Shown here piece after piece: positions 4,482 through 52,896 of a stretch of DNA of 64,000 bases. The position numbers and the translations under genes were made by a program. Position 1 is the first letter of the stretch, and each line of letters starts with the position of its first letter. Source of the DNA: Tubulanus polymorphus (lineage: Eukaryota; Animalia; Nemertea); the NCBI RefSeq assembly GCF_964204645.1, contig NC_134030.1, positions 17,112,110 through 17,176,109 on the forward strand. The letters are read 5' to 3'. The notes below the pieces were generated by a model that was not told the DNA's origin, ran no database searches, and saw only the letters and a program-made list of their open reading frames with translations.

Positions 4482-4980
4482 TCGTTGATTAACGACAACG
4501 CTCGTCGTTAACTATTTGACGCTCCGTCGTATAATTCTTATCGTTGATTAACGACAACGCTCGTCGTTAACTATTTGACGCTCCGTCGTATAATTCTTGT
4601 CGTTGATTGAAGACAACGCTCGGCGTTAACTATTTGACGCTCCGTCGTGTAATTCTTATCGTTGATTAACGACAACGGTCGTCGTTAACTATTTGACGCT
4701 CCGTCGTATAATTCTTATCGTTGATTGAAGACAACGCTCGGCGTTAACTATTTGACGCTCCGTCGTGTAATTCTTATCGTTGATTAACGACAACGGTCGT
4801 CGTTAAATATTTGACGCTCCGTCGTATAATTCTTATCGTTGATTGAAGACAACGCTCGTCGTTAACTATTTGACGCTCCGTCGTATAATTCTTATCGTTG
4901 ATTAACGACCACGCTCGTCGTTAATTTTTTGACGCTCCGTCGTTAACATCTTAATCGTTGATTAGCTTCAACGCTCGTTT
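4482..4980. repeat. 59-bp tandem repeat in the 5' LTR (~8.5 units)
   Basis: Unit TCGTTGATTAACGACAACGCTCGTCGTTAACTATTTGACGCTCCGTCGTATAATTCTTA. Confidence 0.95.
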
Positions 4981-5887: not shown

Positions 5888-5905
5888 TGGTGGCAGCGGT
5901 GGGAT
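5888..5905 (+). promoter_or_regulatory. Primer-binding site (tRNA-Leu)
   Basis: TGGTGGCAGCGGTGGGAT, 4 nt after the LTR end; complementary to the 3' end of tRNA-Leu. Confidence 0.85.
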
Positions 5906-6114
5906 CTATTTATCAAAATACTTCCCTTATTGAAAGTATTAATTTTCGTTTGACTTGACGAGTGACGGGTTAGGGCTATTTTATTTTTCCGATGCAGCAG
6001 AAATCCTTCTTCCAGTGATCAGCTTATCATATATATTTAAATCGGTATTTCCTTTCAACCTTCTTGCGCGGCGTCATTCTAATCGTTCGTCTTCTAATTC
6101 AGCTATAAGTAAAA

Positions 6115-20785: not shown

Positions 20786-20875
20786 AGTAATTGGAAGATG
20801 TGGGTTTCAGATCAGAGTACTAGAGTACTAAACACCACTCATCACCACAAGTAATTTTTTTTCCTAATAAATGGG
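20786..20875 (+). repeat. Polinton left TIR
   Basis: Reverse complement of 39720-39809. Confidence 0.95.
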
Positions 20876-23800
20876 AGAGAGTGAGTACCAGACAGAAAAC
20901 AATAATGTTAATAAAAATCAATATTATTGCCCATATTGTAAAAAATACATCGATAAATCTAATAAATCTAAACATAAAAAATCTTCAAATCATATAAAAA
21001 ATGTAATAAATTTTGAAACTCCAGAAAATTCTAATGAAAGAAAAGAACGATTAGAAAATATGAATGTGGATGAAATAAAATGTGAAGTTTGTAATGAATT
21101 TATAGTAAAAAGGAATTATAATAGACATCTCGAATCACAAAAACATTATAAAAATTTAAATAAAAATGTTTTAGGATCAGAATATTTTGATAATAAACCT
21201 CAACAAGTAAAAAAATCAACTTCAAAAACTAAATCCATTTCAAATAAACCTTACATGGAAAATGTTAGAAATTATATTGATTCACTAGAAATAAAAGATA
21301 CAATTGAAATTTTAGAAACATTACATAGTAAAATTGGTCCTGCAGCTATTATATTTAGATTCTTTAAAGGAACAACAATAGAAGATTATAGTAAATTTAA
21401 TGAAATAATAGAAAAAATACTAGATTTGATAACAGATGTTGAATATCCAAAAATTAGTATCTCTGGGAAAGTAAGTTTTATAAAGTCAGAAGAAAAAATG
21501 AATTATAATATTCAAACACTCTGAAGAAATAATTTCAAAAACACAAACAAAAGAGAAGTTAGAAAAAATATTTAATGAATTTAAACGTCATATTGAAGAA
21601 AGATATTTTGAGGGTTCTGGCTTAACATTGAATGAAATTATATATTTAGATTTAAATGTTTATAATACAAAAAGGAATAAAACATCAAAAAGTAATAAAA
21701 TGTTTAAAAATGATTCAAACTTTACAACAGAAAAGGATATTAAAGCATCATCTTATATTAAATTACCATTTACAACAAAAGCAGTAATAAATATTCAAAA
21801 TGAAGATAATAAATGTTTTCTATGGTCAATTATTAGTTGCTTACATCCAACACAGGAAAATGTTTGTAGAATAACAGATTATCGGAAATATGAAACATTA
21901 TATAAAATTGATCAATATTCAGTAACTATAAAAATGATTCCTAAAATAGAAAAAGTTAATAATTTAAAAATAAATGTATTTGAATTAATGCAATTACCAA
22001 AGACAAAAGGTGAAAATATTAAAGATTATACATTGGAAGCTTTATATTTAACAGAATATTATGATGATGAAAATGCTATAGATTTGTTATATTATAAAAA
22101 AGATGAAAATGAACATTATATGTGGTTAAAACAAATTGATTTATTCTTTAGAACAGAAAGTGATCATCATCGTAAAATTTATCTATGTAGAAAATGTTTA
22201 TCTAAATTTATGACTGAGAATGCGTTACTAAAACATAAAGAATTATGTGATAATAAAGATTTTTGTAAATTAATAATACCAACAGAAAAAGATTATAAAT
22301 TGAAATTTACTAATCATAAATTTAAGAATATTGTTCCATTTGTAATTTATGGGGATTTTGAATCGTTGAATAAAGAATTAACTAATCAAGATAGAAAAGA
22401 AATATATAACAAAAAGCAATTATTAAAATCAATGGATAAAGGAAATGAATTAAATGAAGACCCACCGATTATAAATACAATTAAAAAAGTTCATCAAACA
22501 GCTGCTGCTTATGGAATTTATATAAAATCAAATTATCCTGAATTATATGAAAGTCAATATATTTCTTTTAGAGGTGAAAATGTAGTTAATGATTTTTGTG
22601 ATAAAATGATTGAATTAGAAAGTGATTTTGCAAAATTATTAAACAAAAATAAAAGAATAGTTATGACAAAAGAAGATGAAATTGATTTTAATTATGCAAC
22701 TCATTGTTGTTATTGTGAAAAACGTTTTTATTCATTTGATAAAAAAGTTAGAGATCATGATCATTTAAATTCAAAATATCGTGGGGCTGCTCATGAAGAT
22801 TGCAATTTACAAGCTAAGAAAGTTAATTTCGTACCAATATTATTTCATAATTTATCAGGCTATGATACCCATCTATTTATAAAACAATTATCAGGAAAAT
22901 TGGGTTCAATTAATCAAGAAATAGAAGAATATAATGCTATGAATGGCGTAAATGTAAGAAAATATGATTTTAAACTATTAGCTAAAACATCTGAAAGTTA
23001 TATTTCATTTCAATTTGGTTGCATTAGATTTTTAGATTCTTATAGATTTCTAGCAAGTTCATTAGATAATTTATCAAAAAGTTTAGTTGATAATGATTTT
23101 ATAATAACTCGATATTATTATCCAAATGAACAAGATTTTAAATTATTGAGATAAAAAGGTGCAATTCCTTATTCATTTTATAAAACACACAATGATTTTA
23201 ATGTAACAGAATTATTAAAAGATCAATTTTATGATCGATTAAAAGAGGAGTATGTGAAAGATGAAGTGTTTAATAGAACATTAAATATTTGGAACCATTT
23301 TAAGATGAAAAATCATGGTGAATTAGTTGATTTATATTTAAAATCAGATGTTATGATATTGGCTGACATATTTGAAAAATTTAGAGAAGTTAATTTGAAT
23401 CATTTTAATGTTGATCCTTGTTATTGCTACTCTAGTCCTGGTTTAACCTGGCAATGTGGTTTAAAATATACAAATGTAGAATTAGATTTATTAAAAGAAC
23501 CAGACATGGTTTTATTATTTGAAAAATCAATTAGAGGTGGAATTAGTGGTGTTATGGGAGATAGGAATTTTAAAGCAAATGATGAATATAAATTATTATA
23601 TATTGACGCCAATAATTTATATGGCTGGGCAATGATGCAACCTCAACCATACAAAAATTTTATATTAACAGAAGTTGAAAATGATGATAAAACTGATTGG
23701 GAAAGCGCAATTGTGCGTTTAAAAGATGAAGCACCAATTGGTTATTTCTTTGTAGTTGATTTAGAATATCCTGAAAATATAAAGTTTAAAACAAGAAACT

Positions 23801-25919
23801 TGCCTTTTTGCCCAGAACATTTAACAGTAGATGATAGTTATTTAAGTGAATACCAGAAGAACATAAAACCGAAAGATCATGTTTTTACAGAAAAATTAAT
23901 ACTTACTCAAAATAATAAATACAATTATATTGTTCATTATAGAATGTTGAAATTTTATCTAAAGCAAGGAATGAAATTAAAGAAAGTACATAGATATATT
24001 GAATTTAATCAATCGAAGTGGTTAGAAAAATATATAGATTTTAATACTCAACAGAGAACCTTATCAAAAACAGATTTTGAAAAAGATTTCTTCAAATTAA
24101 TGAATAATAGTTTTTATGGTAAAACATGCGAAAATATTAGAAATAGAAATGATATTGAATTAGTAAATAATTCTGAAAGATTAAGGCATTTACAATCAAG
24201 TCCTAGACATTTAGGAAATAAAAGATTTGAAGATTATTTAACAGCAGTTAAATTAAAAAGAACATCAATGAAATTTAATAAACCTATATTTATTGGTTCG
24301 ACTGTTTTAGAAGTATCAAAATTATTAATGTATGATTTTTATTATAATGTTTTACAACCACTTTTTGGGGAAAAGCATATTGAAATATTATATTTTGATT
24401 CTGTAACAGCTGACACCCCAATATTATTAAAATGTAATGATAAAATATTGATAAGAAGAATTTCAGAAATAATTTCAAAACAAAATGAATGTTATATTTC
24501 ATATGGAGAAAAAGAATTAATACAAATAAATGGTTTAATGGATGTTTGGACAAGAAATGGATGGAAAAAATTAAAGAATATTATTAGGCATAAAACAAAT
24601 AACAAAATCTATAGAGTTAGAACTAAATTAGGATTTGTAGATGTTACAGAAGATCATAGTTTAATTAAACGAAATGGCGATGAAATAAAACCAACTGATA
24701 TAAAAATTGGAGATGAATTATTACATAAAAGATTTTTCCAAAGAATGAATCATGTCATTTAATGAAATTATTGATAATATTTATAATATAGAACCCGAAA
24801 CATTAGAAGAAAAAGAATATTTTATCAAAGGATTTTTCATGGGCGATGGTTCAGCAGGTGTGTATAATTATATTTTGGGGTAATAAATATTGTTGGTATT
24901 TATGCAATCAAGACTTAAAATTATTAGAAAGAATTAAGAAATTCTGTGAAGAAGTTTATTCACATAAAACATTTAGAATCATGGATGTTTTGAAATCATC
25001 AGCAGTTTATAGAATACTTGTAAATAATCCTAAAGATTTTGCTATAAAATATAATAATGAATTCTATATTCATGCAATAGTGAAAAGTAATACTTCAACA
25101 AAAGAAAAGATAGTTCCAGATTATGTATTAAATGCAAAAAATAATTTAAGAAAATGGTTCTTCATTGGGTTCTATGCTGCAGATGGTTCAAAAAGTTTCA
25201 AAAACCGCAAAACAATATCTTTAGCTCAAAAAGGAAAAGTTGCTATATCAGGATTGAATATATTATGCAATTCATTAGGTTTTAATATGAATATTGGATT
25301 GATTAAATCTAAACCAAATTGCTTTAATTTAAGCCATGTAGAAAATGAGTTAACAGAAGAAGTTAAAGATTTATTTGAAATATATAACCCAACAGATTAT
25401 GTTTATGATTTATCAACTGAAGATGGTACATTTAACTGTGGATTTCCATTAATAGCGGTCAATACTGATGCGTACATACTAAAAATCAAGACAAATGACA
25501 TAACAAAAGACTTAAAAACATTAAAACATCATTTTGATTTTAGCAATTATCCCAAAGATCATGAACTATTTAGCAAAGATAATAAAAAGATTCTTGGTAA
25601 ATTTAAAGATGAATTAGGGGGTGATTAAATGATTGAATTTGTTGGGATAAGAAGTAAAATGTATAGTTACAGAACAAAAGATCATGAAGCTAAAAAGTTA
25701 AAAGGAATAACAAAACATGTGGTTGATAAACATATAGAATTTCAAGATTATATAAAGTGTTTATATAACTCAATTGTAATGAAACACAAAATGAATTGTT
25801 TAAGATCAGAAGATCATGAGAAGTACATTAATGAAGTTGAAAAAACTAGTTTAAATCCATTTGATGATAAAATGCATATTTTAGATGATGGTATAAAAAC
25901 ATTACCTTATGGTCATTAA
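20871..25919 (+). pseudogene. polB: Protein-primed family B DNA polymerase (N-terminal Zn fingers, vOTU-like domain, HNH/EndoVII insert, intein); frameshifts and stops
   Basis: NIQNEDNKCFLWSI; YGDFES (ExoI); RDHDH..YRGAAH..CN (HNH); FHNLSGYD; FLDSYRF; YIDANNLYGWAM; KLMNNSFYGK; YFD|intein|TD; GKFKDE, SKMY, KGI. Frameshift ~21520; stops at 23152 and 25626. Confidence 0.95.
24400..25463 (+). other. Intein with LAGLIDADG homing endonuclease in pPolB motif C (two frameshifts)
   Basis: LYFD|SVTADTPILL...block B VTEDHSL...FIKGFFMGDGS...FFIGFYAADGS...block F VYDLSTEDGTF...AVN|TD. Confidence 0.92.
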
Positions 25920-26165
25920 AACATAAAATCAATATCATCATAATCGAAATCACTATTGGCTTCTTAATTTTCATTTAATTGTTTAGGTTCTTCTTAGGTT
26001 TTTCTCATTTAAATAAAGTTCTATCTTGTTCCACATTTCATCTCGCTCTCTTTGTTTCTTTTTGTTTGTTAATTCATCAAATGGAATTATAATATCTATG
26101 TTTAAATAATTTACAATCTTATTTAAAAAGAATTCATAATTAATTGAATCTGTTATTCTATTTTC

Positions 26166-26960
26166 TTAATGATACATTAATATTTGTTTGAATATTTTTT
26201 TTATATTTTCCATATCTTCTTCTGTTAATTTAGGTTTTTCATAATAATCGTTAAATAATAAATATAAATACATTTTCGTTTGTTTTGTGTTAAATGTTGA
26301 CGGAATAATTGTTTTTATAATATCTTTTTTAGTTATTTCACCATTTTCATTTTCTATTATTTTCATTTTTTCAAGCCATTGCATATATTCTGGTGTATGA
26401 TCTTCCATAGAAAATATTTTAAAAATTTCATCTAGATAATTTAATTTTGGATCTATGAGAAAATCTCTAGTTTTTTCTTCACCCAATAAATTCTTTTGCC
26501 ATCCACATTCATTACACATAACACAGTACCTTCTTGTCTTAAGGTCGCATAACTACATTGTGGACATTTTCGTTTATAATTTATTGGTAATAGATCTTCA
26601 TTAAGCTCCTGGTATTTTCTTACGTTTTCTTTATGTTTTATTGTTCTATTATGTAGATTAGAATTACTTGTTGTAATAATCAATTTACAATATTTACAAT
26701 AATATGTTTTTCTTGTTAATTCATTATATTGTTTTTTTAACTTTTCAACTGTTTCTTTATTATCTGGTAACGTTTACTCATATTTTATTTTTTCTAATAA
26801 ATTATTTTTTCTTTCATTAAATTCAGTTTCAAATTTATTAGAAATTTTATCTATATGTACTTTACGAAATTGATGATTCTCCCAATCTTCTATATTTTCA
26901 GCGTTATATTTTATTCGACAAGGCTCACAGAAATGATCTTTTATATTATCCTTATCATAG
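26166..26960 (-). pseudogene. Polinton hypothetical Cys-rich (zinc-finger) protein, frameshifted
   Basis: Overlapping ORF pieces with CPQC and CNEC motifs; further CxxC upstream. Confidence 0.5.
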
Positions 26961-26974
26961 AATAAGAAAGGTCT

Positions 26975-27226
26975 TCACCAAATAACTTCAGGTTCAACTT
27001 CAGCAGAATTACTATTACTTTCATTACTATCAACATTAGCCGTTGCGCCATTAATTCTACACTTCTCTGAATGTTTCTTAACATAATTTCTTGAGAATAA
27101 TTTATTACATTTTGGGCAGTTTATTTTAGGGGGTTTATAATTTTCATCATGTTTTTTCATATGTCGAGCCATATTACTTTTTCTTAGAAGTTCACCACAA
27201 ATTTCGCATGCTATCTTCTCATCCAT
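26975..27226 (-). CDS. Small double zinc-finger protein
   Basis: CEIC...HMKKH and CPKC...HSEKC; TAAATG start. Confidence 0.7.
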   Translation of the reverse strand: MDEKIACEICGELLRKSNMARHMKKHDENYKPPKINCPKCNKLFSRNYVKKHSEKCRINGATANVDSNESNSNSAEVEPEVIW

Positions 27227-27294
27227 TTATTAAGGAAAAATTTTATTAAAATTAATTTTTAGTGATGAGCGGTAATTTTTTTATGTTATAAATA

Positions 27295-28078
27295 ATGGTA
27301 GAATTAAAAGAATACAGAATATTTGTTGATTCTAGAAAACTTACAAATTATAAATCACATAATTTACTAGTTCAATTAGATAGAGAATTTAAGAATTGTG
27401 TTGATTTAAAATTAGTAAATATAAGTTTATGTAACTCTTTTTATAATGTATCAGATAAAACTGATGAACATAGAAGCTTTTTTATTTTTGATAAAATTAA
27501 ACCTGAATGGATTCAACTTATGCTTACACCAGGATTATATAATTTAGAAAGATTAGCGCTAGAAATTAATAGAAAAGCTCGGTTTAGATTAGGTAGTGAT
27601 TCTAAATTTAATATTGAATTCATAAAAAGTGAGAGCTCTAATAAAATTAAAGTAAAGTTTGATGATGAAAATATTGGTACTCATTTACATTCAAACAAAC
27701 ATGCTTACGTGGTAAAAAATCCTTGCTAAACTGTTAGGAATTCCTCCAGATAAACTTATTGTTGAAAACACACGCGGTATATCAAATTGAATACCTTTTA
27801 CGCATTTTTATATTTATTGCAATTTATTTGATCCTACAAAAACATTTGAAGCAACTAAAGATAAAACTTGCAATTCTAGTATACTAAATATTTTACCATT
27901 AAAAGATGTAAAACAATTTGGAACTCAAATAAATTATAATTTAACAGAATGTGATTTTAAACCTTGCATTCCACATTTCAATAATTTCAAATTGGAAATA
28001 AGAAATCATAATGGTTATTTAATTGATTTATATAACTTTCCTGTGATATATGAATTAGTTATAAGATGTAGAGTGTAA
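27295..28078 (+). pseudogene. Minor capsid (penton) protein, frameshift near 27720
   Basis: IFVDS, ISLCNSFYNV, PGLYN; alternative frame LAKLLGI, FYIYCNL, LEIRNHNGYLIDLYNFP, typical of Polinton pentons. Confidence 0.75.
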
Positions 28079-28094
28079 TTTTTTCATTATATAA

Positions 28095-28448
28095 ATGAAT
28101 AAAACTGTTGGACCGAGTATATGTTTTGGGTTTGATTTTAAACGTGAGAAAGAAATGAAATTTAATATTAATGATGTAATTACACAAATCAAAAATATTG
28201 CATTTCCTAATGAAACAACATTTAAGTATGAAAAAACAATAGATAAAGAAACTTTAAATGTAGAAAAGATTACTCATTTAATTAGAGAATCTTTAAGATT
28301 TTATGAATTAGATGAAGATTCTATCATCGATGATATTAAAAAAATAATAATTGAAATATATACAAATGAAACTAGTAATGAAATAAATGTTGAATTAATC
28401 ATAAATAAGTTAACTAAATATTTTGAAGATAGTAATTTTTTTGATTAA
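28095..28448 (+). CDS. Polinton hypothetical protein
   Basis: 117-aa ORF with T-tract/TAAATG start. Confidence 0.6.
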   Translation: MNKTVGPSICFGFDFKREKEMKFNINDVITQIKNIAFPNETTFKYEKTIDKETLNVEKITHLIRESLRFYELDEDSIIDDIKKIIIEIYTNETSNEINVELIINKLTKYFEDSNFFD

Positions 28449-28451
28449 TAA

Positions 28452-28673
28452 ATGAGTGATAATAAGTGGATAATAACTGGATTATATAATGGAGCATTAC
28501 TATCAGTTGGAACTGTTGGTTATTCAATGGTATTAAAAAAAGTATTCAAAATGGGAAGTGTTAATGTTGATAGATTTGATATAAATGATATTTTAAAGTT
28601 AACATTAGCAATTACTTTATCTAATTTAACTATTGATTATTTGGAAAAACAAAAATATATTCCTCCCATATAA
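28452..28673 (+). CDS. Small hydrophobic (membrane) protein
   Basis: 73 aa, two hydrophobic stretches, TAAATG start. Confidence 0.65.
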   Translation: MSDNKWIITGLYNGALLSVGTVGYSMVLKKVFKMGSVNVDRFDINDILKLTLAITLSNLTIDYLEKQKYIPPI

Positions 28674-28698
28674 ATGCATAATTTTTTTTGTTAAATGA

Positions 28699-29121
28699 AT
28701 GGCTTCTGCAATTATAACTATTATAGGATCGGCAATTGTTAACGCTTTAGCATTTACTGGTGGTGGATATTTATTTAAACATATTGATAAAAATAGTTCA
28801 TTAGGAGAACAAAGAAGACATAACTTAGCATTAGAGAAATACAATAAAGCAGCAGAAGAATATAGAGAAAAGAGGCAAAACTATATGGATTATATTAACA
28901 AAGAATTATATGATCAGAAGATTTCACATAGAGATTTTCAATCAGTTGATGATGCAATGAGTTTATATAACGCAGTAACCAATAAAGAAAAATTACTTCT
29001 ATACAAACCTAAATTATCAGATTATTATACCCCAAGTAAAGAACAACAGAAATATGAAATAATATGGATTTTAGGTGGAACTGTTATTGTTATATTTGTA
29101 GCATATAAATTTACTAATTAG
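28699..29121 (+). CDS. Membrane-associated protein (hydrophobic termini, central coiled coil)
   Basis: MASAIITIIGSAIVNALAFTGGGYLF...; C-terminal TM segment. Confidence 0.7.
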   Translation: MASAIITIIGSAIVNALAFTGGGYLFKHIDKNSSLGEQRRHNLALEKYNKAAEEYREKRQNYMDYINKELYDQKISHRDFQSVDDAMSLYNAVTNKEKLLLYKPKLSDYYTPSKEQQKYEIIWILGGTVIVIFVAYKFTN

Positions 29122-29141
29122 TAATTTTTTTTTCTAAATAA

Positions 29142-29576
29142 ATGGAAGATAAAGTTGATAGTATTGATATTATTCCTCATGATATAAATAAAACTAAATT
29201 AAAAATATATTTAGAAAAACAAATATTAGAATTTGAAAGTGACTTAAAAGTTAAAAAGAAAAAATATCTAAAAAGTAAAATTATATATTATTTGATTATA
29301 AGTGGTTCGGTTACGATTAGTTCTGTAATAACATTTTTAGCAATATTCAGCCCATTAACACCTTTAGCTATATCAATTGGTGTGTTAGGATTAAGTTCAA
29401 GTGTTTTAACCGGTATAAGTTCAAAATTAAATATAAAAAGTAATAAAGAAAAAATTAAAACTAATATAAAAGAAATTAATAAATTAAAGAATACACTAGA
29501 TTATATAATAAGTTTAAATGGTCATATAACAGTTGAAGAACAAGATAAATTATTAAAAGAATTAATAAATTATTAA
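29142..29576 (+). CDS. Two-TM membrane protein
   Basis: Central hydrophobic hairpin flanked by Lys-rich helices; TAAATG start. Confidence 0.65.
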   Translation: MEDKVDSIDIIPHDINKTKLKIYLEKQILEFESDLKVKKKKYLKSKIIYYLIISGSVTISSVITFLAIFSPLTPLAISIGVLGLSSSVLTGISSKLNIKSNKEKIKTNIKEINKLKNTLDYIISLNGHITVEEQDKLLKELINY

Positions 29577-29592
29577 TTTTTTAATCATATAA

Positions 29593-30981
29593 ATGGTAGA
29601 TAGTTTTCCAAAAGCTTTCCAATATAATAAATCAATTAAATATAATATTCCAGCAATGGATTTTAATAAAGATATTACATATAGAAATGAAGTTTTAGAT
29701 TCATTAACTAATTTAGAAATTTATGTTACTGAAACTTATAATTTTAATGCAAAGATGGAAAATATATTTCATATATATTTAATTAATTTTAAAAAATTGA
29801 AAGATGAAAAACAATGGTTATTAAAATCTAATATGAAGTATTGGCAGAACCAATTAAATTTTGCTGTTTATTGTGCAACAACAGGATGTGGAATTAGTTG
29901 GATTGATCATTTGAATAATTCTAAATATAAATTAATTCAAAGTTTATTTAGATTTCATACATACTTTCAAATCAGAATAATATTAAATGAATTAGAGTGT
30001 GCTTTACCAGGATCTAGGTATTTCAAAGAATAAGATAATAATATTAATTTATCTAAGTTTTATAAGATTTGCAATGAATTTAATATAGATATAAATAATT
30101 CTGATTTTAGAACAAAAATTGGAACAATAAGATCACTTCCTTGCCCTAAAAAGATTGCAGAATATTGTGCACTTCCCATACCATCTAATAGTTTGTATAA
30201 TATCTATAGTCATAAATTAGGTTATGGTAAAATAGAAACTAAGGATTTAGAAACATTAAATTTTAATAAATTACCGACATTTTATGATAATTTAAAACAA
30301 GAAAACAATAATGGTTGGGTTAATTTCATTTTAGAAAATAATGAAGGTTTTACAAAATCAGGTATACAAAGAATAAATCAATCTATTAGAACTTATTTGA
30401 TATGTATTTTAGGTGCGCAAGTTGAAACAAGATCCCCAATAATTGGAAATTTAAATACATCATTTGATACACAGAAACAATTCAAAGTATTATTTGAAGA
30501 TTCCATACATAATGATAAAAATAGATCGATTCCAGAAAACATTGTAAGATATCAAAATTATTTAGATAAATCACATATTAGATTAAATTATTGTATAGGC
30601 CCTAATCTATTAATTATTTCTAATGATTTAGTATTAAAGATGGGAAACATAATTGGTTATAATAATCTAATTAAAACTGCAACAATAAATAATTCATTTG
30701 GATTGAATGATATAAATAAAAAGATTATCACTGCTCCAAAATTAATGGAAGGTGAAAAAATTAAAAAACATATTCAATCAACAGAAACTAAAACTAAGAA
30801 TATTAAATTGGATAATGATTCCAAAATAAAAGATTACAATACTACAGAAAATATTAAAACTGATAATATTCAACATGATATAATTAAAACTGATAATGAC
30901 AATAAATTACATGAAAATACTAAATTAGCTTTAACTTGTATAGGAATTGTAATCGGAGGAATATTATATTTTAAATTTTAA
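29593..30981 (+). pseudogene. Hypothetical protein with C-terminal TM anchor (one internal stop at 30031-30033)
   Basis: ORFs 29593-30033 and 30193-30981 are in the same frame; YWQNQLNFAVYCATTGCGIS; C-terminal LTCIGIVIGGILYF. Confidence 0.65.
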
Positions 30982-30997
30982 TTTTTTTATTATATAA

Positions 30998-32460
30998 ATG
31001 GATGTAGAAGGTGGAGAAGATATTGGAATGGATAATTTTGATGAACCTGGCATAACTGATGAACAACCACCTGATTTTGATGAAACAAGTTTTAATGATG
31101 GTAATGAGCCAGAATATAATAATAATTTGAATATGCCTGATTATATTAAAAATGCTGAATCACAATTAAATCCTGAAAATTTTGGACCCAGATTTAGTAA
31201 AACAAGATTTAGATTATTTAAACAAAATACCTAAATTAGAAGATTTAATTGAAAAATCTAAACTTAACATAAATGATGAAGACGTTGGACTTTTAGCAGA
31301 TCAATTAAAATTTTTAGATAATGGTAAATGTATTTATCGTTTGAAAGGTGATTATTATATTGATATCACTTATAAAAACAATAAAAATAAGATATTATCA
31401 GAATCAACTTTAGAAAAATTAAAACCAGATAGAATTAAAATAATAAGTAATAGTAATGAAATAACTGATGTTACACAAAAAGAAATAGATGATAATATAG
31501 AAGTATTTAAACAAAGAATTAATGAATTATTTGAAATAATCAAAAAGAAATCAGAAACAGAAACAACTTCTGAACGGAATATAACTTCCAAAAATAGTAA
31601 ACTTAAATCAAATAAAGTTCCAATTGAAAAACTTTTACCGAATGGATTAATTGATGCAACAGATCAAGAATTAGAAGATTTAGATATATTTTCTGATAAA
31701 GCAATTAGAGAAATTATTAGTATAAGACTTGCATCTGTTAAAATTGCGTATGATAAAAGTATAAAAGATTTTAAAATTAGAACTTTAGAAAAAGAATTAA
31801 CTGATAAAAATAAAGAAATAGAAAAAATAAAGTCTGATTTAGATCATCAAGTAATTGATGAAATAGAATATAGGCAAAAAGAATTACGTTTAGAAAAAGA
31901 AAAAGATGATTTAGAATATAACATAGAATTACAAAAAGAAGAAATTAAATTATTATTAAAATCATATGATTATAATATTAATAGATTAAAAGATGTTTTT
32001 AAAAGATATCTAATAAAACCAGATTCTAAAATATCATTGAAAGATAGAATAAAATTATTATTTAAGTTTGAAGGAATAACAATTCTTTCAATTCTAACAG
32101 CTGTAACTATGTTATTTACAACATTTGGTTTAGCAATATCAAATTCTTAAAAACCTACTCCTACTCCCAATAAACCAGATAAACCCCCAGGTAATAATTC
32201 TATACAAGATAAAGTTAAAGATGGTTTAAAGAAATTAGCAAAATATTTATGGGAACTATCTAAAAAATCTGCTGCAGCTTTACCAGGAATTATTGCATCA
32301 ATTGTTGGTTTTATATTGAAATCTGCTGGGAATATTCTTAACTTTGCTGCTGAACATATTATTTTATTTTTAATTACAGTTGTAAGTGCTATTATTTTTG
32401 GGTTAGTAAATATGATATCAAAAAGATATCAAGAAAAAAATAATAAAAAAATAAATAATT
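30998..32460 (+). pseudogene. Large coiled-coil membrane protein, two frameshifts
   Basis: Acidic N-terminus, coiled coil, TM (GITILSILTAV...); continues in another frame DKVKDGLKKLAKYL...ALPGIIASIVGFIL...IILFLITVV. Confidence 0.65.
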
Positions 32461-32473
32461 AATTTTTTTGTTT

Positions 32474-34080
32474 TGTAGCGGAAAATCCCTTGCCGTAGTT
32501 GTTTTTCGGGGTGTTTTCTTCTGCAAAGCTCCTCCGCCGCCCTGCGCGTGGTTGATTTTATAAATTATAGTTTTGTATTTCCGGTGTTGGAAATGGTCGG
32601 TCGGTTTTGGGCGGTAATTAGCGCAACTTTTCTAAATCTCCCCTTTTTGCAATTTTGTCCGATCACTTCCCACACCTTTAAATTATCGTATCGCTTTGAA
32701 ATTTGTACAGAATGTATAAACCTTGGATCAAAATGTTTTCACGTATTTTTCTTATCGTTCCGTCCATTTATAACTTAATTATATTAGGTTTTATATAAAA
32801 ATTACCTCCTCTCGCTCTAATGTCCGCCATTTTGTTGTAATGTGACGTCACGTTGCTCGCATTCCTGACGTCATTGTGGCACTCAGCCAATCAGCGCTGA
32901 GTGCAGCGTGACGTCACCTTGCATTTTTTTTGAATTGAGAAAGCGAGTTCGCTCAAATTATCTGAGGTACGTAGTTCAACCCGGCGCCGAGTCCTCTTGG
33001 CGTCGGGTAGGACCCTCGTTACGAAGTCTATTGCTTAATGATCTTGTGCTCTGGGTCAACTTGGCGACCTATAATCACTTTGATTCCCTTTTGACTTTAA
33101 TAGATCAACCTGGCGATCTATTAAATCTCGTTTTATATAGGTCAACGTGGCAACCTATATATAAATTCTGAGATGCCGTCAGTTCAACGTTATCGGGGTC
33201 AACTCGGCGACCCGGTTCTGTCAATTCTTTTCTTGACACATGATCTTTGAGCTTAATTTATGTATATATCCGTAGACATGATAAGCTCGACCTTTTTAAA
33301 TTCCGGGCAAATGCAATAATTAGATTATTTATTAGATTGTTAAAAATAATGAATCAGAGCAAGTTTTCTACGTTGATTTTTAAAAGTTTATTCTGTTTAA
33401 TTATAGAATATAAAATACATTTCATTTATATGAACGTACGAGTTAAATTTGGAAAATATTATTAATATATATTGAATTTTAAAACTCTCGTTTTCTCTGT
33501 CGCGAGTAGAGGAGGAGGCCTGTGTCCCTTTTATTCCCCTAATTTGTGTGTCACATGAGTCCATAGTAAGCTGGGGCAAGCCAAAGAAGCCGGTTGCGAG
33601 AGCTACGTGCTGGAGGCACTTGGAATGACACTTTACACCAGAGGATACCAGAGGAGAAGTAGGCGCCGGTGCTCGGGTGACCGTGTGATCTCGCGTCTTG
33701 TCAAGGGCCCTGACTTGACTGATCACACGGCGGACACTCGTCCTGACTGGTCTGGTGACCCATTCATCCAGCCATGGGGTTGTGGGGTACGATTCGCACT
33801 CACCTCTGACACTATTTTAGCCCTCGTGGAGCCCCTTTTTCCCTTGAGTCAGCCGCTGTCCATTTATCAACCTTCGGAGGATGACTTTTCCCCTTTGCAG
33901 TCCTACTACCCGGGATTGTTCGACGAAGGCGGACCCTTGTAGCCATGCCCTGACGAAGAAGCCTTGGAACTCGGACACTTTGAGATCGTACCATCCTTTA
34001 TTCCGTAAACGCTACCCTGGCGCCACCTCTCCGTTGAGTCACCCACCTCTCCGAGGGAGGCTCCGGGCGTCGCGGCTACA
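32474..34080 (+). mobile_element. Solo LTR (1.6 kb, Gypsy-like) inserted 9 bp upstream of the capsid ATG
   Basis: TGTAGCGG...CGGCTACA termini; TSD GTTT at 32470-32473 and 34081-34084; GC-rich relative to the Polinton; three TGACGTCA sites and a CCAAT at 32843-32916. Confidence 0.88.
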
Positions 34081-34089
34081 GTTTAATAA

Positions 34090-35337
34090 ATGAGTGGGAG
34101 TTATATAAGTCCTTCTAAGATTTCTAGAATATCTATTGCTATTAAAGCAGAAAGATCACATCGTATAATTACTCATAACCCTTCAAATATTTATCCCGAT
34201 GAAACTTTATATGTTAGAATTCCTAGATTAACACAAAATACTTTTTATGTTCCAAATAGTATTTATTTATCAGCCGATATAAAAGTAACTGGCCATGATA
34301 ACAATTATGTTGTTGATAATGTTGGAAGATATTTGATTAAAAAATTAACTATAAAGATTGGTCCAGAAACAGTTTTCTCATTAGATGATTATAATTTATC
34401 TATGCATTATAAAGATTTATGGTTAACTAAAGAAAATAGAAATAATATGATATTTCAGGGTATTCAATCGGAAAACCATAATAAATTAAGATCAGGAGCT
34501 AATGACGCAATAGTAACTCGTGCCACAGATAATTTGATAAAAAAGATTTATAGAAGCAAATATGAAATTCCATTAGACTTTGAATTGATAAATAATAATG
34601 CACCTTTATATAAATACGCAATTCAAGAAGATATTATATTTGAGATAACATTTGCTCCTGTAAATGAAATTGTATTATCTAGCGTTGTTGAAGATATGAG
34701 TTATAAATTATCGAATATATGTTTAGAATATGATACAGTAACTGATGAAAATATTGCTAGCACAATTCAAACTCAATACAATCAAGGATTTTCATTATTA
34801 TATGATTATATTGATAAATTTAAAACCGTAACTATTAATGCAAATGATGAAATAATTAATGAGAATATTAACTTCCCAAGAAGATCTATTAAAGGTATAT
34901 TAATATTTTTTACCATTGCAACATATTCTAATGATGCAATAAAGGTAGATAATTATTATAATCCTGAAATAACAAAAGTAGAAATAACTATCGAAGGAAT
35001 AGCAAATAAAATATTTTGCCAAGGAATGAGAATGATAGATCAGTGGCCAGAAATTAGAAAACATTTTATGAATGAAAAAGTAAAATCATTTGAAAATTGT
35101 AATATTAATCAAATTGATTATTATACCGGCAATAAATATGCATTATGGTTAGATTTTAGAACAACAGAGGATAATTCATTACATGGTTCTGGAAAAAAAT
35201 TACAAAACACTAAAGATGGAATACAATTATTCATGGCGAAGAAAAGAGGGGACAAAAATTTCAAAATGCACATTTATATTATATCTGACGCGCAATTAAA
35301 TATTGTAAATTCACAATTAGATAGTATTCAATATTAG
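34090..35337 (+). CDS. Major capsid protein (double jelly-roll), intact
   Basis: 415 aa, beta-rich; THNPS...LYVRIP, YEIPL, ICLEYD, SIKGILIFF, LWLDFR; size and position next to INT and ATPase fit a Polinton MCP. Confidence 0.82.
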   Translation: MSGSYISPSKISRISIAIKAERSHRIITHNPSNIYPDETLYVRIPRLTQNTFYVPNSIYLSADIKVTGHDNNYVVDNVGRYLIKKLTIKIGPETVFSLDDYNLSMHYKDLWLTKENRNNMIFQGIQSENHNKLRSGANDAIVTRATDNLIKKIYRSKYEIPLDFELINNNAPLYKYAIQEDIIFEITFAPVNEIVLSSVVEDMSYKLSNICLEYDTVTDENIASTIQTQYNQGFSLLYDYIDKFKTVTINANDEIINENINFPRRSIKGILIFFTIATYSNDAIKVDNYYNPEITKVEITIEGIANKIFCQGMRMIDQWPEIRKHFMNEKVKSFENCNINQIDYYTGNKYALWLDFRTTEDNSLHGSGKKLQNTKDGIQLFMAKKRGDKNFKMHIYIISDAQLNIVNSQLDSIQY

Positions 35338-35367
35338 AAATATAAAGTTAAAATTAAGGATATATAA

Positions 35368-36494
35368 ATGGGTGGTAAAAAAACTCCTAATACTAAAGAA
35401 CAATATTTAAGAAATTTATATTACAACCCTGAGAGTTCAGTTGCTTATTCTTCTACTAAAAATATATGGCGTCAAGTAAAACAAGATAAATTAGATAAGA
35501 TAATCCCACAAAATTTAGTTAAATATAAAGATATAAATGAATTTATGTTAGAATAACCAACATATACAACACATAAAAAAATTGTTAGAAAATATATAAC
35601 TCGTAAAACTATGGTAAGTTATGTAGATCAACAGTGGCAAGGAGATTTAATTGATATGAAAAATTTTAAGAAAGATAATGATGATTATTGGTGGTTATTG
35701 AATATAATTGATATTTTTAGTCGTTATGTATGGAGTTTCCCACTTTATAGAAAAGATGCTGTACAAACATCAAATGTTTTAAGAAAATTTCTTTCGGATG
35801 ATAAACTAAAACCAGAAAAAATACAATTTGATGATGGAAAAGAGTTTGATAATTCACTTGTTCATGAACTCTTAGATAATCATAATATTAAATATTTTTC
35901 AACAAAATCAGATAAAAAAGCAGCAGTTGTTGAACGATTTAATAGAACATTAAGAACAAGAATGTGGAAATATTTTACAGCAAATAATACTTTTAAATGG
36001 ATTGATGTTTTACCAAAATTGATAGAAGGATATAATAATTCTTATCATTCTTCTATGGAATGAAACCTATTGATGCTAGAAAACCTGAAAATGCTGAAAT
36101 TGTTTGGAATAATTTATATGGAGCATTTCTTGTAGATGATTTTGGTGAACCTAAATTTAAAGTTGGTCAAAGTGTTAGAATTTCTAAGTATAAAAAGATA
36201 TTTGATAAAGGATACGATCGAAATTTTACTAGAGAAATATATAAAATAAAAAAAGGAATAACAACAAAACCATATGTCTATAAATTAGAAGATTTAGATG
36301 GTGAAGAAGTTGATGGCTACTTTTATGAAGAAGAATTAAGTTTAACTACTGAAAATCTAGAACAAGAATATAAAATTGAAAAAGTATTAAAAACAAAAAC
36401 TATTAAAAGAAAAAAATATTCTTCAGTAAAATGGGTTGGATGGCCAGATAAATTCAATGAATGGATATTATCAAGTAAAATTAAAAAAATATAA
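35368..36494 (+). pseudogene. Retroviral-like (RVE) integrase with C-terminal chromodomain (stop at 35554, frameshift ~36060)
   Basis: LYYNP; WQGDLIDM; IDIFSRY; QFDDGKEF; VERFNRTL; KFKVGQSVRI; YKIEKVLK...VKWVGWPDKFNEWI. Confidence 0.93.
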
Positions 36495-37103
36495 ATGAAT
36501 AAAGAATTATTTATATTTGAGCCTCATAATATGTTAATATCTGGCGTAACAAATTGTGGAAAAACTTATTTTATATTAAATATATTAGAAACTGTTTATG
36601 AAAACTATTTTGATAATATAGTATTATTTTGCCCAACATATGAATTTAATCAAACTTATGATAGAAATATTACTAGAAATAATAAATTTATTATATTAGA
36701 TCCTAAAACAGTAAAAGAAAATTTAGATAATTGTATTAAAATAGCAATTGATATTTATAAAGGATCAAATAAATTATTCATTATAGATGATTGCGCAAAT
36801 TTACATGATTCAAAAGTTAGAGAAAGTGAGTTATGTTATTTAGCTTTCTCTGGGAGACATTTTGGGATAACAACTTGGGTTTTAAATCAAAAATATAATT
36901 CAATTGTTAAAGACTTTAGAGAAAACATTAGATTTCTAGTTTTATTCTACAATAAAGATAGAAAATCGATGAAAAATGCACTTGAGGAAAATGATATTAT
37001 TCCACATGATTTACATAATGAATATATGGATAAGTTGAAAAATATTAAAAGATCAAAATTATTATTTAGATTACAACACCCATTTAAATATGAATTTATT
37101 TAA
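36495..37103 (+). CDS. A32/FtsK-HerA-like DNA packaging ATPase
   Basis: Walker A GVTNCGKT; Walker B FIIDD; SGRHFGI...NQ...REN. Confidence 0.92.
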   Translation: MNKELFIFEPHNMLISGVTNCGKTYFILNILETVYENYFDNIVLFCPTYEFNQTYDRNITRNNKFIILDPKTVKENLDNCIKIAIDIYKGSNKLFIIDDCANLHDSKVRESELCYLAFSGRHFGITTWVLNQKYNSIVKDFRENIRFLVLFYNKDRKSMKNALEENDIIPHDLHNEYMDKLKNIKRSKLLFRLQHPFKYEFI

Positions 37104-37107
37104 ATTC

Positions 37108-37345
37108 AATTAGTTTGTTAATCTAGTTGAATTCTAGTTATTAGTATTTGTAACAAAAATCAAATAGATTTAACAATATTTTAACTAGCTTGTTAATCTA
37201 GTTTAATTCTCATTACATTCTAGTTAAATTCTAGTTGTTAGTAGTTGAAACAAAAATCAACTAGATTTAACTAGAAATAAACAAAAACAACAATATTTCA
37301 ACTAGCTTGTTAATCTAGTTGAATTCTAGTTAAATTCTAGTTGCA
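37108..37345. repeat. CTAG-rich degenerate repeat block
   Basis: Recurrent AACTAGCTTGTTAATCTAGTT, AATTCTAGTT and ACAAAAATCAA. Confidence 0.8.
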
Positions 37346-37376
37346 ACATCACACAATTAATTTTTTTGTTATATAA

Positions 37377-37982
37377 ATGGGAGGTGAAAAGAAAATAAAA
37401 TCTAAAAATGGTTATGTTCCAATTGAAAAAACTTTAGATGATTTAGGAATAACAGAAAACAAATTAATTCCAGATGATGGTGTTTTAAATAATGTTACAA
37501 CAAATAATAATTATGAATATTATCTTTATTGTAAACATCAATTAGAAATATTAATAGCATCTGGAAAATGTAAAAATTTTGTCGGTAAAAATTTAACTCA
37601 TAATGAATTAGATACAATGAAATCAGATGAAATTATTAGATTATTTAAGATTTATGAAGCCGCGAGAACAGCCAGTATTAATGACGCAATATCAGAAAAT
37701 GTAGTAAAAGGTTATAGTAAATTATGTAATTATATACTACCAATTGAAGATGAAAATAGATTATATTCCGATTCAAAAAATGATTATTTAGTTATGACTG
37801 AATTAAATAAATGGATTGGATATTTATCGTTTCAATTAGGTGGATTTATGACATTATTATCAACTGGGGTTATAACATTTTCAAACATTGAAAGTAAAAA
37901 TATTTCTATAATAAATGAGCGAAGTGAAAGAAGTGAAGGAATTAACTGTGAAGAAAAAACCGAGAACTCAGAAACAAATTGA
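37377..37982 (+). CDS. Polinton hypothetical protein
   Basis: 201-aa ORF; T-tract/TAAATG start; hydrophobic segment near the C-terminus. Confidence 0.65.
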   Translation: MGGEKKIKSKNGYVPIEKTLDDLGITENKLIPDDGVLNNVTTNNNYEYYLYCKHQLEILIASGKCKNFVGKNLTHNELDTMKSDEIIRLFKIYEAARTASINDAISENVVKGYSKLCNYILPIEDENRLYSDSKNDYLVMTELNKWIGYLSFQLGGFMTLLSTGVITFSNIESKNISIINERSERSEGINCEEKTENSETN

Positions 37983-38283
37983 ATGGTCTAGGCAATTAGG
38001 AATTAAATCACAAGAATATAAAAAAGCTGTAAAAGAAAAAATAAGTTATAAAAATGTTAATAAAAATGGTGAAAATATTGTTATTTCTACTCCTTCTGAT
38101 AGTAGAATATTTGATAAATATTTATATTTTACAGTTGGATTTGTAATTGTATTCATTTTGATTGGGTGTAATTGGTATAAGAAATCAAATAAAATTCATG
38201 ATATTAGTAATTCTGAACCAACTGCTATCAAAAATGAAAGTACTTCTGAAATTCCAAAATTGATAATAAAAAAAATTGATTAA
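37915..38283 (+). CDS. Basic single-TM protein
   Basis: KKPRTQKQIEW N-terminus; TM YLYFTVGFVIVFILIG; TAAATG start. Confidence 0.65.
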   Translation: MSEVKEVKELTVKKKPRTQKQIEWSRQLGIKSQEYKKAVKEKISYKNVNKNGENIVISTPSDSRIFDKYLYFTVGFVIVFILIGCNWYKKSNKIHDISNSEPTAIKNESTSEIPKLIIKKID

Positions 38284-38751
38284 TATTTTAGAAAAAAAGC
38301 AAAAAAAACAATTTTTTTTAATTAATTGAATATCTCACTACTTTTGTCTATCTATGCGGAGCAATTAAATTGTCCAGATAAGTCATTTCGGATTCTAGAT
38401 ATTCATTATTTTTATTAATTTATTTTGTTTTTACTTGAATATTGTATTACAGTCGTTTCTTATTATTAGTTTTTTCTTAAATTGAAAGATGGCAGCACTG
38501 GGTGTGATGCTAAAATGAATATTTGAATTTGAATTTGTTAATCAATTAACATAGTAATTGATTACTAATTTGATTAAAAATTATATCATAATTAAGTTAA
38601 AAATCCATAATTCATTTATCAGTTTTCATTCTTATATTCTTTTCATTCGGAATAATTTATAATTTCAAATTTCACATATTTTTTAGCACCAGCAACATTT
38701 ACTTAGGTGTTTTAGCTAAGTATATAAGGCAATTCATTCAACCACTGGAGT

Positions 38752-39040
38752 GCCGCCGGGCTTGGCTTGCAGGGGCATTTCGAAAATGCACCTTTGTCCA
38801 CCCTCCGTGGTTCTCCTTCAGTTTCGACTTTCGATCCTCCTTTCGGGGGTAAGGGGTTGATAGGAAATGCATTAGACGCCTTAAATATAATGTGTTTCCT
38901 GTCAACCATTGAAGGAGAATTGGCGAGGCGTGGGTCACAGGGGTGTAAGTAGAAATGCTTGGGGATAGGTATCTCGTGGCGCCTCTCAATAACGGGATGC
39001 TTATCCCCTAAAAACTCTGCGAGTCAAGTCGGGTGGTTTT
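38752..39040 (+). ncRNA. Putative Polinton-encoded structured ncRNA (~290 nt, Pol III type-3-like layout)
   Basis: GC-rich island; nested long helices whose deviations are almost all G-U on the + strand; TATATAA at 38721; TTTT at 39037-39040. Confidence 0.7.
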
Positions 39041-39397
39041 GCTAAAACTTACCGTAAAAACATTGAAATATTCCTTTTAATCACGAGAGAATGATGACTA
39101 TCCTCCTGTCGTCACGGCCGAGCTAATTTAAATAAACATCGCTTTCAGTAACCAATGAAAACGTGGTAGTTCAATGCCGGCTAACTGGCCTGTGTGTGTT
39201 GTATGTACTGCGTGCTTAATATATAACTGCTAGCTATCCAATATAACAACAACGTTGTGCAACACTTGTTTGATTGATCAATATTCAAATGAAGCACTCT
39301 CTTATAATAACATGTAACAGATGTTTGACTGTATGATTGTAGTTGTTTATAAAACGACTAAGGTCATTTTTAGATATTCATTATTTTTATTTTTTAT

Positions 39398-39724
39398 TTA
39401 ATCAACAATTTCCAAATCATGATGACCGTCTTCATTTTTCCCATGATATATTATTTTAAATCCTACTAAATCCTTCAATTCCTCTGTACTCAATGAAACC
39501 CATTTATCGGGTAAAAACACTTTAAATTCTCGCGATGTACTTACATTGCAGTAGCTTAGATTAGCTGATACTTTCTCTCCATATTTAGTTTTTATCTTTT
39601 CTAATTTCAATATCTTATGTTCAATTTCTTTTGTAACATCAACTAACTTTTTTATTTCAAATTGTTTTTTTGTCGGTTTAATTCTGTTATTTATTGTTGC
39701 TAAGAATGCTTTTCTATCCCCCAT
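39398..39724 (-). CDS. Small Polinton accessory protein (KTKYG...VFLP motif)
   Basis: 108-aa ORF starting inside the right TIR at TAAATG. Confidence 0.7.
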   Translation of the reverse strand: MGDRKAFLATINNRIKPTKKQFEIKKLVDVTKEIEHKILKLEKIKTKYGEKVSANLSYCNVSTSREFKVFLPDKWVSLSTEELKDLVGFKIIYHGKNEDGHHDLEIVD

Positions 39725-39809
39725 TTATTAGGAAAAAAAATTACTTGTGGTGATGAGTGGTGTTTAGTACTCTAGTACTCTGATCTGAAACCCACATCTT
39801 CCAATTACT
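39720..39809 (-). repeat. Polinton right TIR
   Basis: Reverse complement of 20786-20875. Confidence 0.95.
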
Positions 39810-40619
39810 GAGGTTTTTGCTTCAGCTTTAGTAATATTTCGTTTTAAAGCAATTTCAGATGTTTCTTTCGTTTTAGTAAACAATGTTTGGATTGAAGGTG
39901 TTTTTGACAGTGCTTTAGTCAAATCCTTGTGTCCTTGTGTTTCTATGTACCTACGACAATCCGACTGCCCGCCATGAGAGCACGATATATTAATATTGCA
40001 CGTCGAACTGTATGCGAAACATTCTCCCTTTACAGACGGTTTTAAACAAGGCCACTTTTCAGAATAGAAGTCGATGAACCGTTTATTCGATTTCTTTGTA
40101 GCGGGCGATGAATCGACGTCATTATCATTACCCGCGCTGGCACGCTAAGGCATATTTATTCCCGCCAACACTGCGAACAGAACAATGGCTACAGCGCAAA
40201 GGAGTGTGGGTGAACTTAGTCTCGGCAATGTTTGCGTTCGAATCCCACACAAAATTTTTATCGTGTGACATAAAAATTAATTTTTACCAATGGTTTTTTT
40301 GTCTACTATAGCAATTTTTTTTTCTCCCTGATTTATCGGGTTATTTAATCACCCGATGCCTCTACATTTGCATAGCGTACGGCTACGCCGCCAACAAGTA
40401 ACAGCGCGCAGCATTGCAACGCTTTATGTACTAGTATATGCCAGCGCTGTAATCAGTGCCGCGCGTAGGAGTGTACTCGAGACTAATACATAGAAGAGGC
40501 GCGCTAATCGATAAAGTCAAACTACTACATCGCTGTAAAAGCCTTTAATGTATTGGCTGTAAAATACAATGATTTTTTTCGCATCGGAATCGTAATTTTC
40601 TTTTAGAGAGCATCGCTCG

Positions 40620-49143: not shown

Positions 49144-50225
49144 TATGGTAGTAGGGTGGGCACCGTGCAGCGGTTAAATCACCATACTCTCCTTTCATTA
49201 CCCATAACTGGTTGCCCAGCTGACATGTTTTACCTCGAATTTTAGTACTGCCGTTGTTTTTGATTTTGATTTTTAGCTTACCTTGTTGCTACGGAATCAG
49301 ACTCATGTTGGAACTGTCTGCAGGAGACTCAACCAACCCGATGAACCTTCTGTGATTTCAGTGCTGTTCACCGACCTAGGCAAGTGTGTTGATTATTGAG
49401 CGAGTACCTTCAAATGGTTTAATCGCCTCAAATCTACCTCCAGTGGAACATAAGCTAGTGTTGGTGTATCAGTTTGGTCGCATTGGATAATTGGATTTAT
49501 TGCGAATTGTAAATACTGAATGTGTGTGTTGGCGTAACCCGTAGTTTATGACATTTTTGTAACGGACACTGAATATCGACATGATATATGAACTGTAAAT
49601 ACTGGACATATGTGCGGTCGTAAGCTACGCTTACGACACTTTTGGGGGGAGTGGTGTAACGGGTCTCGTACCCGTTTTAATGTATATAGTTTACCGTCGG
49701 TAATTAGTGTAATGTATAGTGGAATAAATCACCGCTAGGTGCGGTGTCTTAGAAGTGGAACCATTGTCCGAGTAAGTTCGTTGTTCTTTTCTTCGGGATA
49801 AATTGCCCTTTATAGCCTATTGTCAGAGCGTAAGTCATCCTTAAAGGTGGTATTAGCGATTTAGAAGACAGGATCATTACACATGAGACAAATTGATCTA
49901 GCCATTCAGTAATTTCTTCATTTGAATGTTCTCCAAATTTAGGCGAGTCCTTAATCCATACTACCATGTGATACGAGCTGACCCTCGCTCTTGCATTTCC
50001 ACTTTATAAAACATATCCTGAATCTCTCCAATTGGACTGTGAGGACTTTTGAGGACATTTCCTATAAATGTATGAACTCTTTGGTAAAAAATCTAGCACA
50101 AGTAATAGGGTCAGATTTGATAAGTCGAGAACGTTGTTGCCAGTCCATAGCTTCAATATCATCATCAGATTAGTCAGTTTCATCAATTTAATACTTAAAC
50201 AGTTTAACATTCTACAGGATTCATT

Positions 50226-52785: not shown

Positions 52786-52896
52786 AGTTGCTCCTTCAGA
52801 GGCCAGAGAGTACATGTTGACATCATCGGCCCCCTTAAGAAATCCAAAAAAGGGAACATGTACATCCCGGTGGCACAAGACGCATTTACTAAATAG

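Follow-up and report, generated by a model that had tools for sequence, protein, structure and literature searches.

The question raised by this locus is whether a Polinton, one of a group of elements so far characterised by their proteins, also carries a gene for a structured RNA. A preliminary description of the window, which is the whole stretch of 64,000 nucleotides analysed here, had proposed such a gene on the + strand and had suggested a possible analogue of adenoviral VA RNA. The carrier is a Polinton/Maverick (adintovirus-like) element of ~19 kb on the + strand (20786..39809). Its terminal inverted repeats (TIRs) measure 96 nt and are 98% complementary (20786-20881 / 39714-39809), its ends read AGT...ACT, and the target duplication is 6 bp with one mismatch. 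Sequencing reads terminate at 39809, and the flanks are unlike one another. Pfam analysis of the Polinton identified an rve integrase (E value, 2.9e-11) and a Pox_A32 ATPase (E value, 3e-12), the latter 1.6 kb from the RNA, and gave no PolB or capsid match. The polymerase was recognised by eye from its motifs, in four pieces and with a probable intein; the capsid protein is a putative assignment from its size, its position, and 924 homologues. The copy is decayed, with the polymerase and integrase frames in pieces. Judging from the neighbouring repeats, the host is probably an invertebrate animal.

Several other segments of the window deserve mention in their own right. The polymerase at 23305-25628 apparently holds, at its catalytic motif, an intein that includes a LAGLIDADG endonuclease; the Pfam scores (Intein_splicing, E value, 0.0046; LAGLIDADG_3, E value, 0.00092) are both below the curated cut-offs, and the word 'intein' is absent from the adintovirus paper (PMC8502044). 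A probable second insertion inside the Polinton (32475-34080) is solo-LTR-like: it has the termini TGTAGC...GCTACA and is flanked by a duplicated 4-bp GTTT, and the related locus L001, described below, joins both flanks directly. Duplications of 4 bp are also described for animal Helenus TRIMs (PMC10886601). At 32960-33240 (+), about five hairpins with differing stems share the loop motif TCAACNYGGCRA (z -5.0, no Rfam match), and the stretch before them (32840-32925) is promoter-like, with three TGACGTCA and a CCAAT box. This array has the look of a series of sites at which a protein would bind RNA or single-stranded DNA. A Penelope-like element (RT and GIY-YIG) at 731-3749 lies between 936-nt arms whose 100% complementarity indicates a recent insertion, and 50068-52815 is AT-rich; it holds inverted repeats nested in one another, and its short ORFs belong to no known family.

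The proposed RNA gene lies in a non-coding cassette of about 1 kb (38384..39395, assigned to neither strand), 680 bases from the right TIR and between two converging genes, an ORF at 37915-38283 (+) and an ORF at 39398-39724 (-). The cassette is bounded by a ~30-nt gene-end motif in two same-direction copies, at 38398 and 39373. Protein coding was ruled out, as no ATG-started ORF of at least 80 aa was present inside the cassette.

Folding of 38745-39045 as RNA demonstrated a strong difference between the strands. The + strand gave a minimum free energy (MFE) of -158.8 kcal/mol (z -12.4), equalled by 0 of 100 shuffles, vs -93.5 kcal/mol (z -4.3) for the - strand, and the MFE structure contained 21 G-U pairs on the + strand vs one on the - strand. 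Pairs with a probability above 0.9 made up 92 of the 109 in the + strand fold. The predicted structured RNA, a putative Pol III transcript of ~289 nt (38752..39040, + strand), is the lowest-energy 300-nt window of the whole Polinton, and its G + C content of 51% vs 23% for the element body confirms the GC-rich island noted at the outset. The seven helices of the preliminary description were all present, and in that register they hold 19 G-U pairs, close to the 20 or so announced. Two of them needed correction in detail: the helix 38798-38805/38925-38933 does form eight Watson-Crick pairs but requires C38929 to be bulged, and the closing stem contains one G.G mismatch. Given the z-scores, the G-U bias, the pair probabilities, and the unpaired differences between copies presented below, the claim of a Polinton-borne RNA selected on the + strand is well supported, and we consider it very probable that 38752-39040 is a + strand RNA structure under selection of some kind.

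The same region could instead act at the DNA level, as a hairpin that signals replication or packaging in single-stranded form, or be a palindromic insertion that has decayed under strand-biased mutation, and it does fold as DNA (z -7.5 on the + strand and -3.5 on the - strand). However, the structure is branched and no simple palindrome, its 19-21 G-U pairs are accompanied by no A-C pair, and the AGUA/GAA loop described below is an RNA motif. Over 3.8 kb, the substitution classes among copies were balanced (A>G 107, G>A 107, C>T 93, T>C 100), evidence against a strand bias of mutation having produced the surplus of G-U pairs. An origin at the DNA level is, in our judgement, extremely improbable.

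In the predicted fold, the terminal stem of the RNA pairs its 5' strand (38752..38774, +) with 39015-39037 through 22 pairs, six of them G-U, in addition to the mismatch. The long arm (38787..38947, +) leads through helices of 11, 4+4, and 15 pairs to a multi-way junction, in which two small UUUCG-containing hairpins are located (38824-38849). Hairpin A (38855..38907, +) has 20 pairs and a 13-nt loop that includes CGCC (38877-38880), and hairpin B (38961..39008, +) has 17 pairs and a 14-nt loop with a self-complementary hexamer (38978-38983) at its start. The longest uninterrupted helix in the predicted RNA is at most 20 pairs. TTTCG occurs four times in the RNA, with a frequency of 0.0004 in shuffles that is a post hoc value. 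A kiss between the two hairpin loops had been suggested from CGCC and GGCG; both motifs are indeed in the loops, but four pairs between loops of 13-14 nt would be weak alone. Free-strand energies were -14.1 kcal/mol for loop B with loop B and -7.4 kcal/mol for loop A with loop B, and a two-copy fold was 12.1 kcal/mol better than two monomers. Since loop B is self-complementary and loops A and B are complementary to each other, a kiss is possible within or between molecules.

The sole internal loop larger than 2x2 in the predicted RNA places GAAAA (38782..38786, +) opposite AGUA (38948-38951), next to the closing pair C38781-G38952. AGUA/GAA is the sarcin-ricin / loop E motif (PMC1865062), a recurrent 5x4 loop that occurs in a lysine riboswitch and RNase P, too (PMC8450098). 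When the unpaired letters were permuted, AGUA/GAA fell in register in 41 of 200000 trials (p = 2e-4), a post hoc probability to be discounted for a handful of other noticeable motifs. Across the 64-kb window and the related loci (93 kb), a loop-E descriptor placed between two helices matched this RNA alone. As in the known motif, AGUA/GAA stands here in register beside a Watson-Crick closing pair. It differs in that the predicted GAA strand has two extra A, so that the upper part of the motif may differ, and the likeness is one of motif, not of family. The in-register loop, as modelled, is an RNA-specific 3D motif and supports a structure at the RNA level.

The boundaries of the fold were then compared with those of a Pol III gene. 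A TATA box, TATATAA (38721..38727, +), lies at -31 to -25 relative to G38752; the TATA box of buffalo U6 occupies -31 to -24 (PMC3958870). Within this element, an 8-nt window would contain TATATAA by chance at a rate of about 0.9%, or a looser TATA at 3%. A putative PSE position, placed after the same report, is 38686..38706 (+), at -66 to -46. Among 12 of 80 indel positions in the reads, those upstream were 38678, 38681, and 38686, and the next was 39028. The putative Pol III terminator is a T4 flanked by G (39037..39040, +), which would leave a short U overhang on the terminal stem. The RNA body contains six T3 runs and no T4 or longer, which is weak evidence since 19% of shuffles lack T4 as well; on the - strand, T4 and T5 runs would cut a transcript of the region short. 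The fold begins at the start predicted from the TATA at -31 and ends at the T4. With consensus patterns for the two boxes, no A box was found near the 5' end within two mismatches, and the best B box candidate, at 38829, lacks the first G. No snRNA or tRNA genes were found in the 64-kb window. The arrangement of TATA and T4 fits a U6-type (type-3 Pol III) gene, as the preliminary description had it, and the RNA is probably made as a separate Pol III transcript.

Alternatively, the fold could be a cis-acting 3' UTR element of a + strand late mRNA, serving export, localisation, or dimerisation, with no separate gene. CTE, bicoid, and oskar are examples of such elements. The ORF at 37915-38283 is on the same strand with the fold about 470 nt behind it, the first AATAAA past its stop is at 39131, beyond the fold, and the palindromic loop would suit dimerisation. 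On the other hand, the closing stem is framed exactly by the TATA box at -31 and the T4, ATTAAA is already present at 38364 and 38573, and the AATAAA itself is lost in the 109 reads in which the spacer behind the RNA is deleted (39090 to 39185 or 39189) with the RNA retained. We regard this explanation as unlikely.

The spacer also contains a promoter-like cluster at 39105-39230 (CGTCA, CCAAT, and TATATAA at 39220), which is partly deleted in some copies and is followed by neither an ORF nor a fold. The candidate for a further small RNA in tandem, at 39238-39372 behind this TATATAA, was rejected (z -0.46), and 39045-39240 gave z -1.28.

To characterise other copies in the same species, reads and contigs of four sequencing runs were compared over 36400-40200. 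In raw genomic reads (run X5), the RNA had a depth of 487-756, compared with 277-653 for the genes left of it and 35-40 past the TIR. The depth over the RNA was therefore 12-19 times that of the flank and matched the element's genes, indicating that the RNA belongs to a multicopy family and not to one copy alone. As it did not exceed the depth of the element, the RNA is not a widely dispersed repeat at 80% identity or more.

A 364-nt contig of run X1 spanning the RNA (depth 174) showed only four differences from this copy, at 38876, 38883, 38924, and 38929, and the same four positions were those inside the RNA among 40 of 725 differences compared. In the MFE structure, which leaves 68 of its 286 positions without a partner, all four are unpaired (p about 0.003). 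For 38924 the assignment is ambiguous (probability of being unpaired, 0.49), and the three clear differences alone give p about 0.013. At position 38876, in loop A, 455 of 457 reads differ from this copy, and the change, judged by eye, favours loop-loop pairing. No deletion of the RNA only was present among 15 of 67 joints, and one contig of run X2 skips the entire cassette and part of the next gene. Within the terminal stem, two letters are inserted behind 39028 in 122 of 658 reads; another X1 contig has 20 differences and two gaps over 38940-39088. In run X2, the summed contig depth was 2,600-7,000 over the cassette vs 16,500-39,000 over the genes to the left; this five- to tenfold fall points to many more distant subfamilies that are without the RNA or diverged there. 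The unpaired positions of the four differences are a sign of selection on pairing; the insertion and the contig with 20 differences count against it unless compensated.

These data bear on a further explanation, in which the cassette is a captured host small-RNA gene (an uncatalogued, lineage-specific Pol III RNA) or a small parasite with its own promoter, of little benefit to the element. The contrast in G + C content mentioned above, the patchy distribution among relatives described below, the repeated motif that bounds the cassette as after recombination, and an upstream-promoter layout that is that of host U6/7SK genes are all consistent with capture. However, there is no Rfam match at E values up to 10, no tRNA, and no intact A or B box, and the differences between copies avoid the helices. 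A SINE or small LTR element (TRIM) was rejected because it would have intact A/B boxes or convincing TG...CA ends with a target duplication, and none were present. The depth speaks against wide dispersal for copies at least 80% identical, a limit that diverged dispersed copies or a diverged single-copy host gene would escape. The preliminary description had named a dispersed SINE or a known host RNA as what would overturn its proposal, and no such match was obtained with Rfam or from the read depth. Capture is doubtful in our view.

Related Polintons were collected through an ATPase alignment, which yielded 23 metagenome loci, and a capsid alignment, which added three, for a total of 26 loci and 93,245 bases. 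No homologue of the RNA was detected in any of the 26 by blastn, nhmmer, or the loop-E descriptor, most of these loci being partial or short. Prokaryote genome contigs contained none with the ATPase and three distant capsid loci in which the RNA was absent, the viral contigs scanned gave nothing, and phage records contained no match to the RNA. The locus L001 (11.5 kb, about 72-80% nucleotide identity) agrees with the element in gene order, starting at the minor genes and running through the ATPase into the two genes behind it. It contains no 200-nt window above 26% GC, and a deoxynucleoside kinase (PF01712; E value, 1.7e-31) at L001:10340-10981 (-) occupies the slot of the RNA cassette. As this locus is without polymerase and ends, absence of the RNA from that element is likely, not proven. 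No remnant of the kinase gene was found in the 64-kb window. Absence from sister Polintons had also been named as evidence against the proposal; it was observed in the related loci, yet in its own species the RNA is present at family depth. From its absence in the 26 related loci, the RNA looks like an accessory of one lineage and not a core Polinton feature.

Fold candidates in the related loci were also inspected. Those of L014 and L023 lie in low-complexity, compositionally skewed sequence and that of L015 in repeats, all judged by eye. L013:1-300 was rejected as a counterpart, since it has z -8.8 on both strands with no strand bias and an unrelated sequence; in the related Polinton that carries it, this strong nested fold directly follows the integrase gene.

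The predicted topology and the complementary loops recall the phi29 pRNA, which has a three-way junction with two complementary loops (PMC4201828), and a structural RNA of that kind could form dimers or rings through its kissing loops for genome packaging or a replication compartment. The likeness extends to the element, with a putative protein-primed polymerase and a packaging ATPase of the A32 type nearby, and to the self-pairing of loop B, the energy gain of the two-copy fold, and the near-universal change in loop A; the kiss itself is predicted from free-strand energies only. In contrast to pRNA, the RNA described here has a eukaryotic Pol III layout, belongs to another virion lineage, and matches neither Rfam nor phage records. 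The RNA is missing from the DNA compared of relatives whose ATPase is 74-81% identical, and this argues against a pRNA, since a motor part should not be so dispensable. Retention in all close relatives would be expected of a pRNA; none of the 26 loci has it, most being partial, while L001 spans the capsid-to-ATPase module and the downstream slot and has no comparable GC-rich window. We know of no pRNA for double-jelly-roll viruses. A role of this kind seems quite improbable.

We tentatively favour an accessory Pol III RNA of this Polinton family that would decoy host dsRNA-binding defences, and rate this analogy-based reading at somewhat short of an even chance. It draws on the fold favouring the + strand, the AGUA/GAA loop, the unpaired differences, the TATA/T4 boundaries, the family-level depth, the accessory slot, and the precedent of VA-I. 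It is weakened by the absence from all 26 relatives, the A/B boxes that are not intact, the insertion in the terminal stem, the X1 contig with 20 differences, the drop in X2 depth, and the length compared with VA. Under the decoy reading, host Pol III would start at about G38752 from a U6-type promoter and stop in the T4, giving a 5'-triphosphate, U-ended RNA. The 22-pair terminal stem with its short U overhang would then be an export or Dicer substrate. Helices of at most 20 uninterrupted pairs with G-U may be bound by proteins of the Dicer, ADAR, or sensor type yet fail to activate them, and the sarcin-ricin loop and the loop-loop kiss may lock a compact 3D shape. The expected benefit would be reduced silencing or immune activation during replication of the element.

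The same stems might instead mainly serve as a small guide RNA precursor, in which Dicer cuts the terminal stem or the hairpins and the products silence messages of the host or the element. Stems of 22 pairs and hairpins of 17-20 pairs would suit this role, VA terminal stems yield mivaRNAs (PMC2777419), and BLV makes Pol III pre-miRNAs (PMC4378190). However, the longest match elsewhere in the window is at most 11 nt, and the sarcin-ricin and kissing loops would be unnecessary for it. A precursor function has, we judge, a small probability.

In a bolder form of the proposal, Pol III RNAs with a tertiary structure would be part of the coding capacity of Polintons, and the RNA described here would represent a new self-assembling class. 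Dimers, rings, or condensates would form through its sarcin-ricin loop and its palindromic kissing loops, either feeding the packaging ATPase as a eukaryotic pRNA or soaking up host RNA-silencing proteins. We consider this unlikely but worth stating; if true, VA-like RNAs would be a recurring invention across the Polinton-adenovirus lineage.

In a search of the openly accessible literature, no Polinton-encoded RNA gene was found and 'Polinton' and 'VA RNA' never appeared together, and no RNA gene was mentioned in the searched passages of the adintovirus paper (PMC8502044). A decoy RNA against host defences would be the behaviour of a virus rather than of a transposon; if true, it would be relevant to the question of a viral way of life in animal Polintons and to the origin of VA-type RNAs. 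The target of the RNA would indicate which dsRNA sensor restricts DNA elements in the host, and the uncatalogued fold is small enough for direct transcription and probing.

Comparison with known RNAs was performed against Rfam. As the preliminary description had anticipated, no family was recognised: the RNA gave no match at E values up to 5 or 10, except a 24-nt CRISPR-repeat chance match, and the 64-kb window gave nothing at gathering scores. Models of 7SK, SRP, RNase P/MRP, Y, vault, and telomerase RNA, ribozymes, and IRES did not match the RNA, of which 7SK, RNase P/MRP, and SRP RNAs are close to it in size. As predicted here, the RNA is an uncatalogued, new fold. With U6 and 7SK genes it shares the TATA at -31, the predicted G start, and the T-run end; it differs from them in the lack of an Rfam match and in sitting in a mobile element.

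Among viral RNAs, the EBERs of EBV are a second precedent, beside VA, for an RNA that engages dsRNA-binding defence proteins without activating them (PMC4378190). Like EBER1 and EBER2, which come from a nuclear DNA virus, the RNA studied here is predicted to be structured, is likely a Pol III product, and would end in a U-rich stretch, but it is longer, far more helical, dissimilar, and without a second RNA in tandem. EBER promoters, too, have an upstream TATA-like input, and VA RNAs or EBERs measure about 160-170 nt vs about 290 nt here.

Adenoviruses belong to the same broad virus lineage as Polintons, and their VA RNAs are abundant Pol III transcripts that inhibit PKR and Dicer. Like adenovirus VA RNA I/II, the predicted RNA would close in a terminal stem that is followed by an oligo-U, would have helices rich in wobble pairs and a junction domain in which loops contact each other, and occupies the position of an accessory gene. 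In VA-I, wobble-enriched stems lower sensor activation and the loops form a pseudoknot (PMC6599070), and the VA terminal stem squelches Dicer, while VA genes have a promoter made of internal A and B boxes (PMC2777419). The RNA described here differs in having an upstream TATA in place of the intact internal A/B boxes, in its predicted sarcin-ricin loop and pair of long hairpins, whose loops measure 13-14 nt, and in showing no sequence or Rfam similarity to VA. The suggested VA analogy accordingly does not hold as membership, given the promoter, Rfam, and size, and persists in the wobble-rich terminal stem and the oligo-U end; the RNA would work like a VA RNA without belonging to the VA family.
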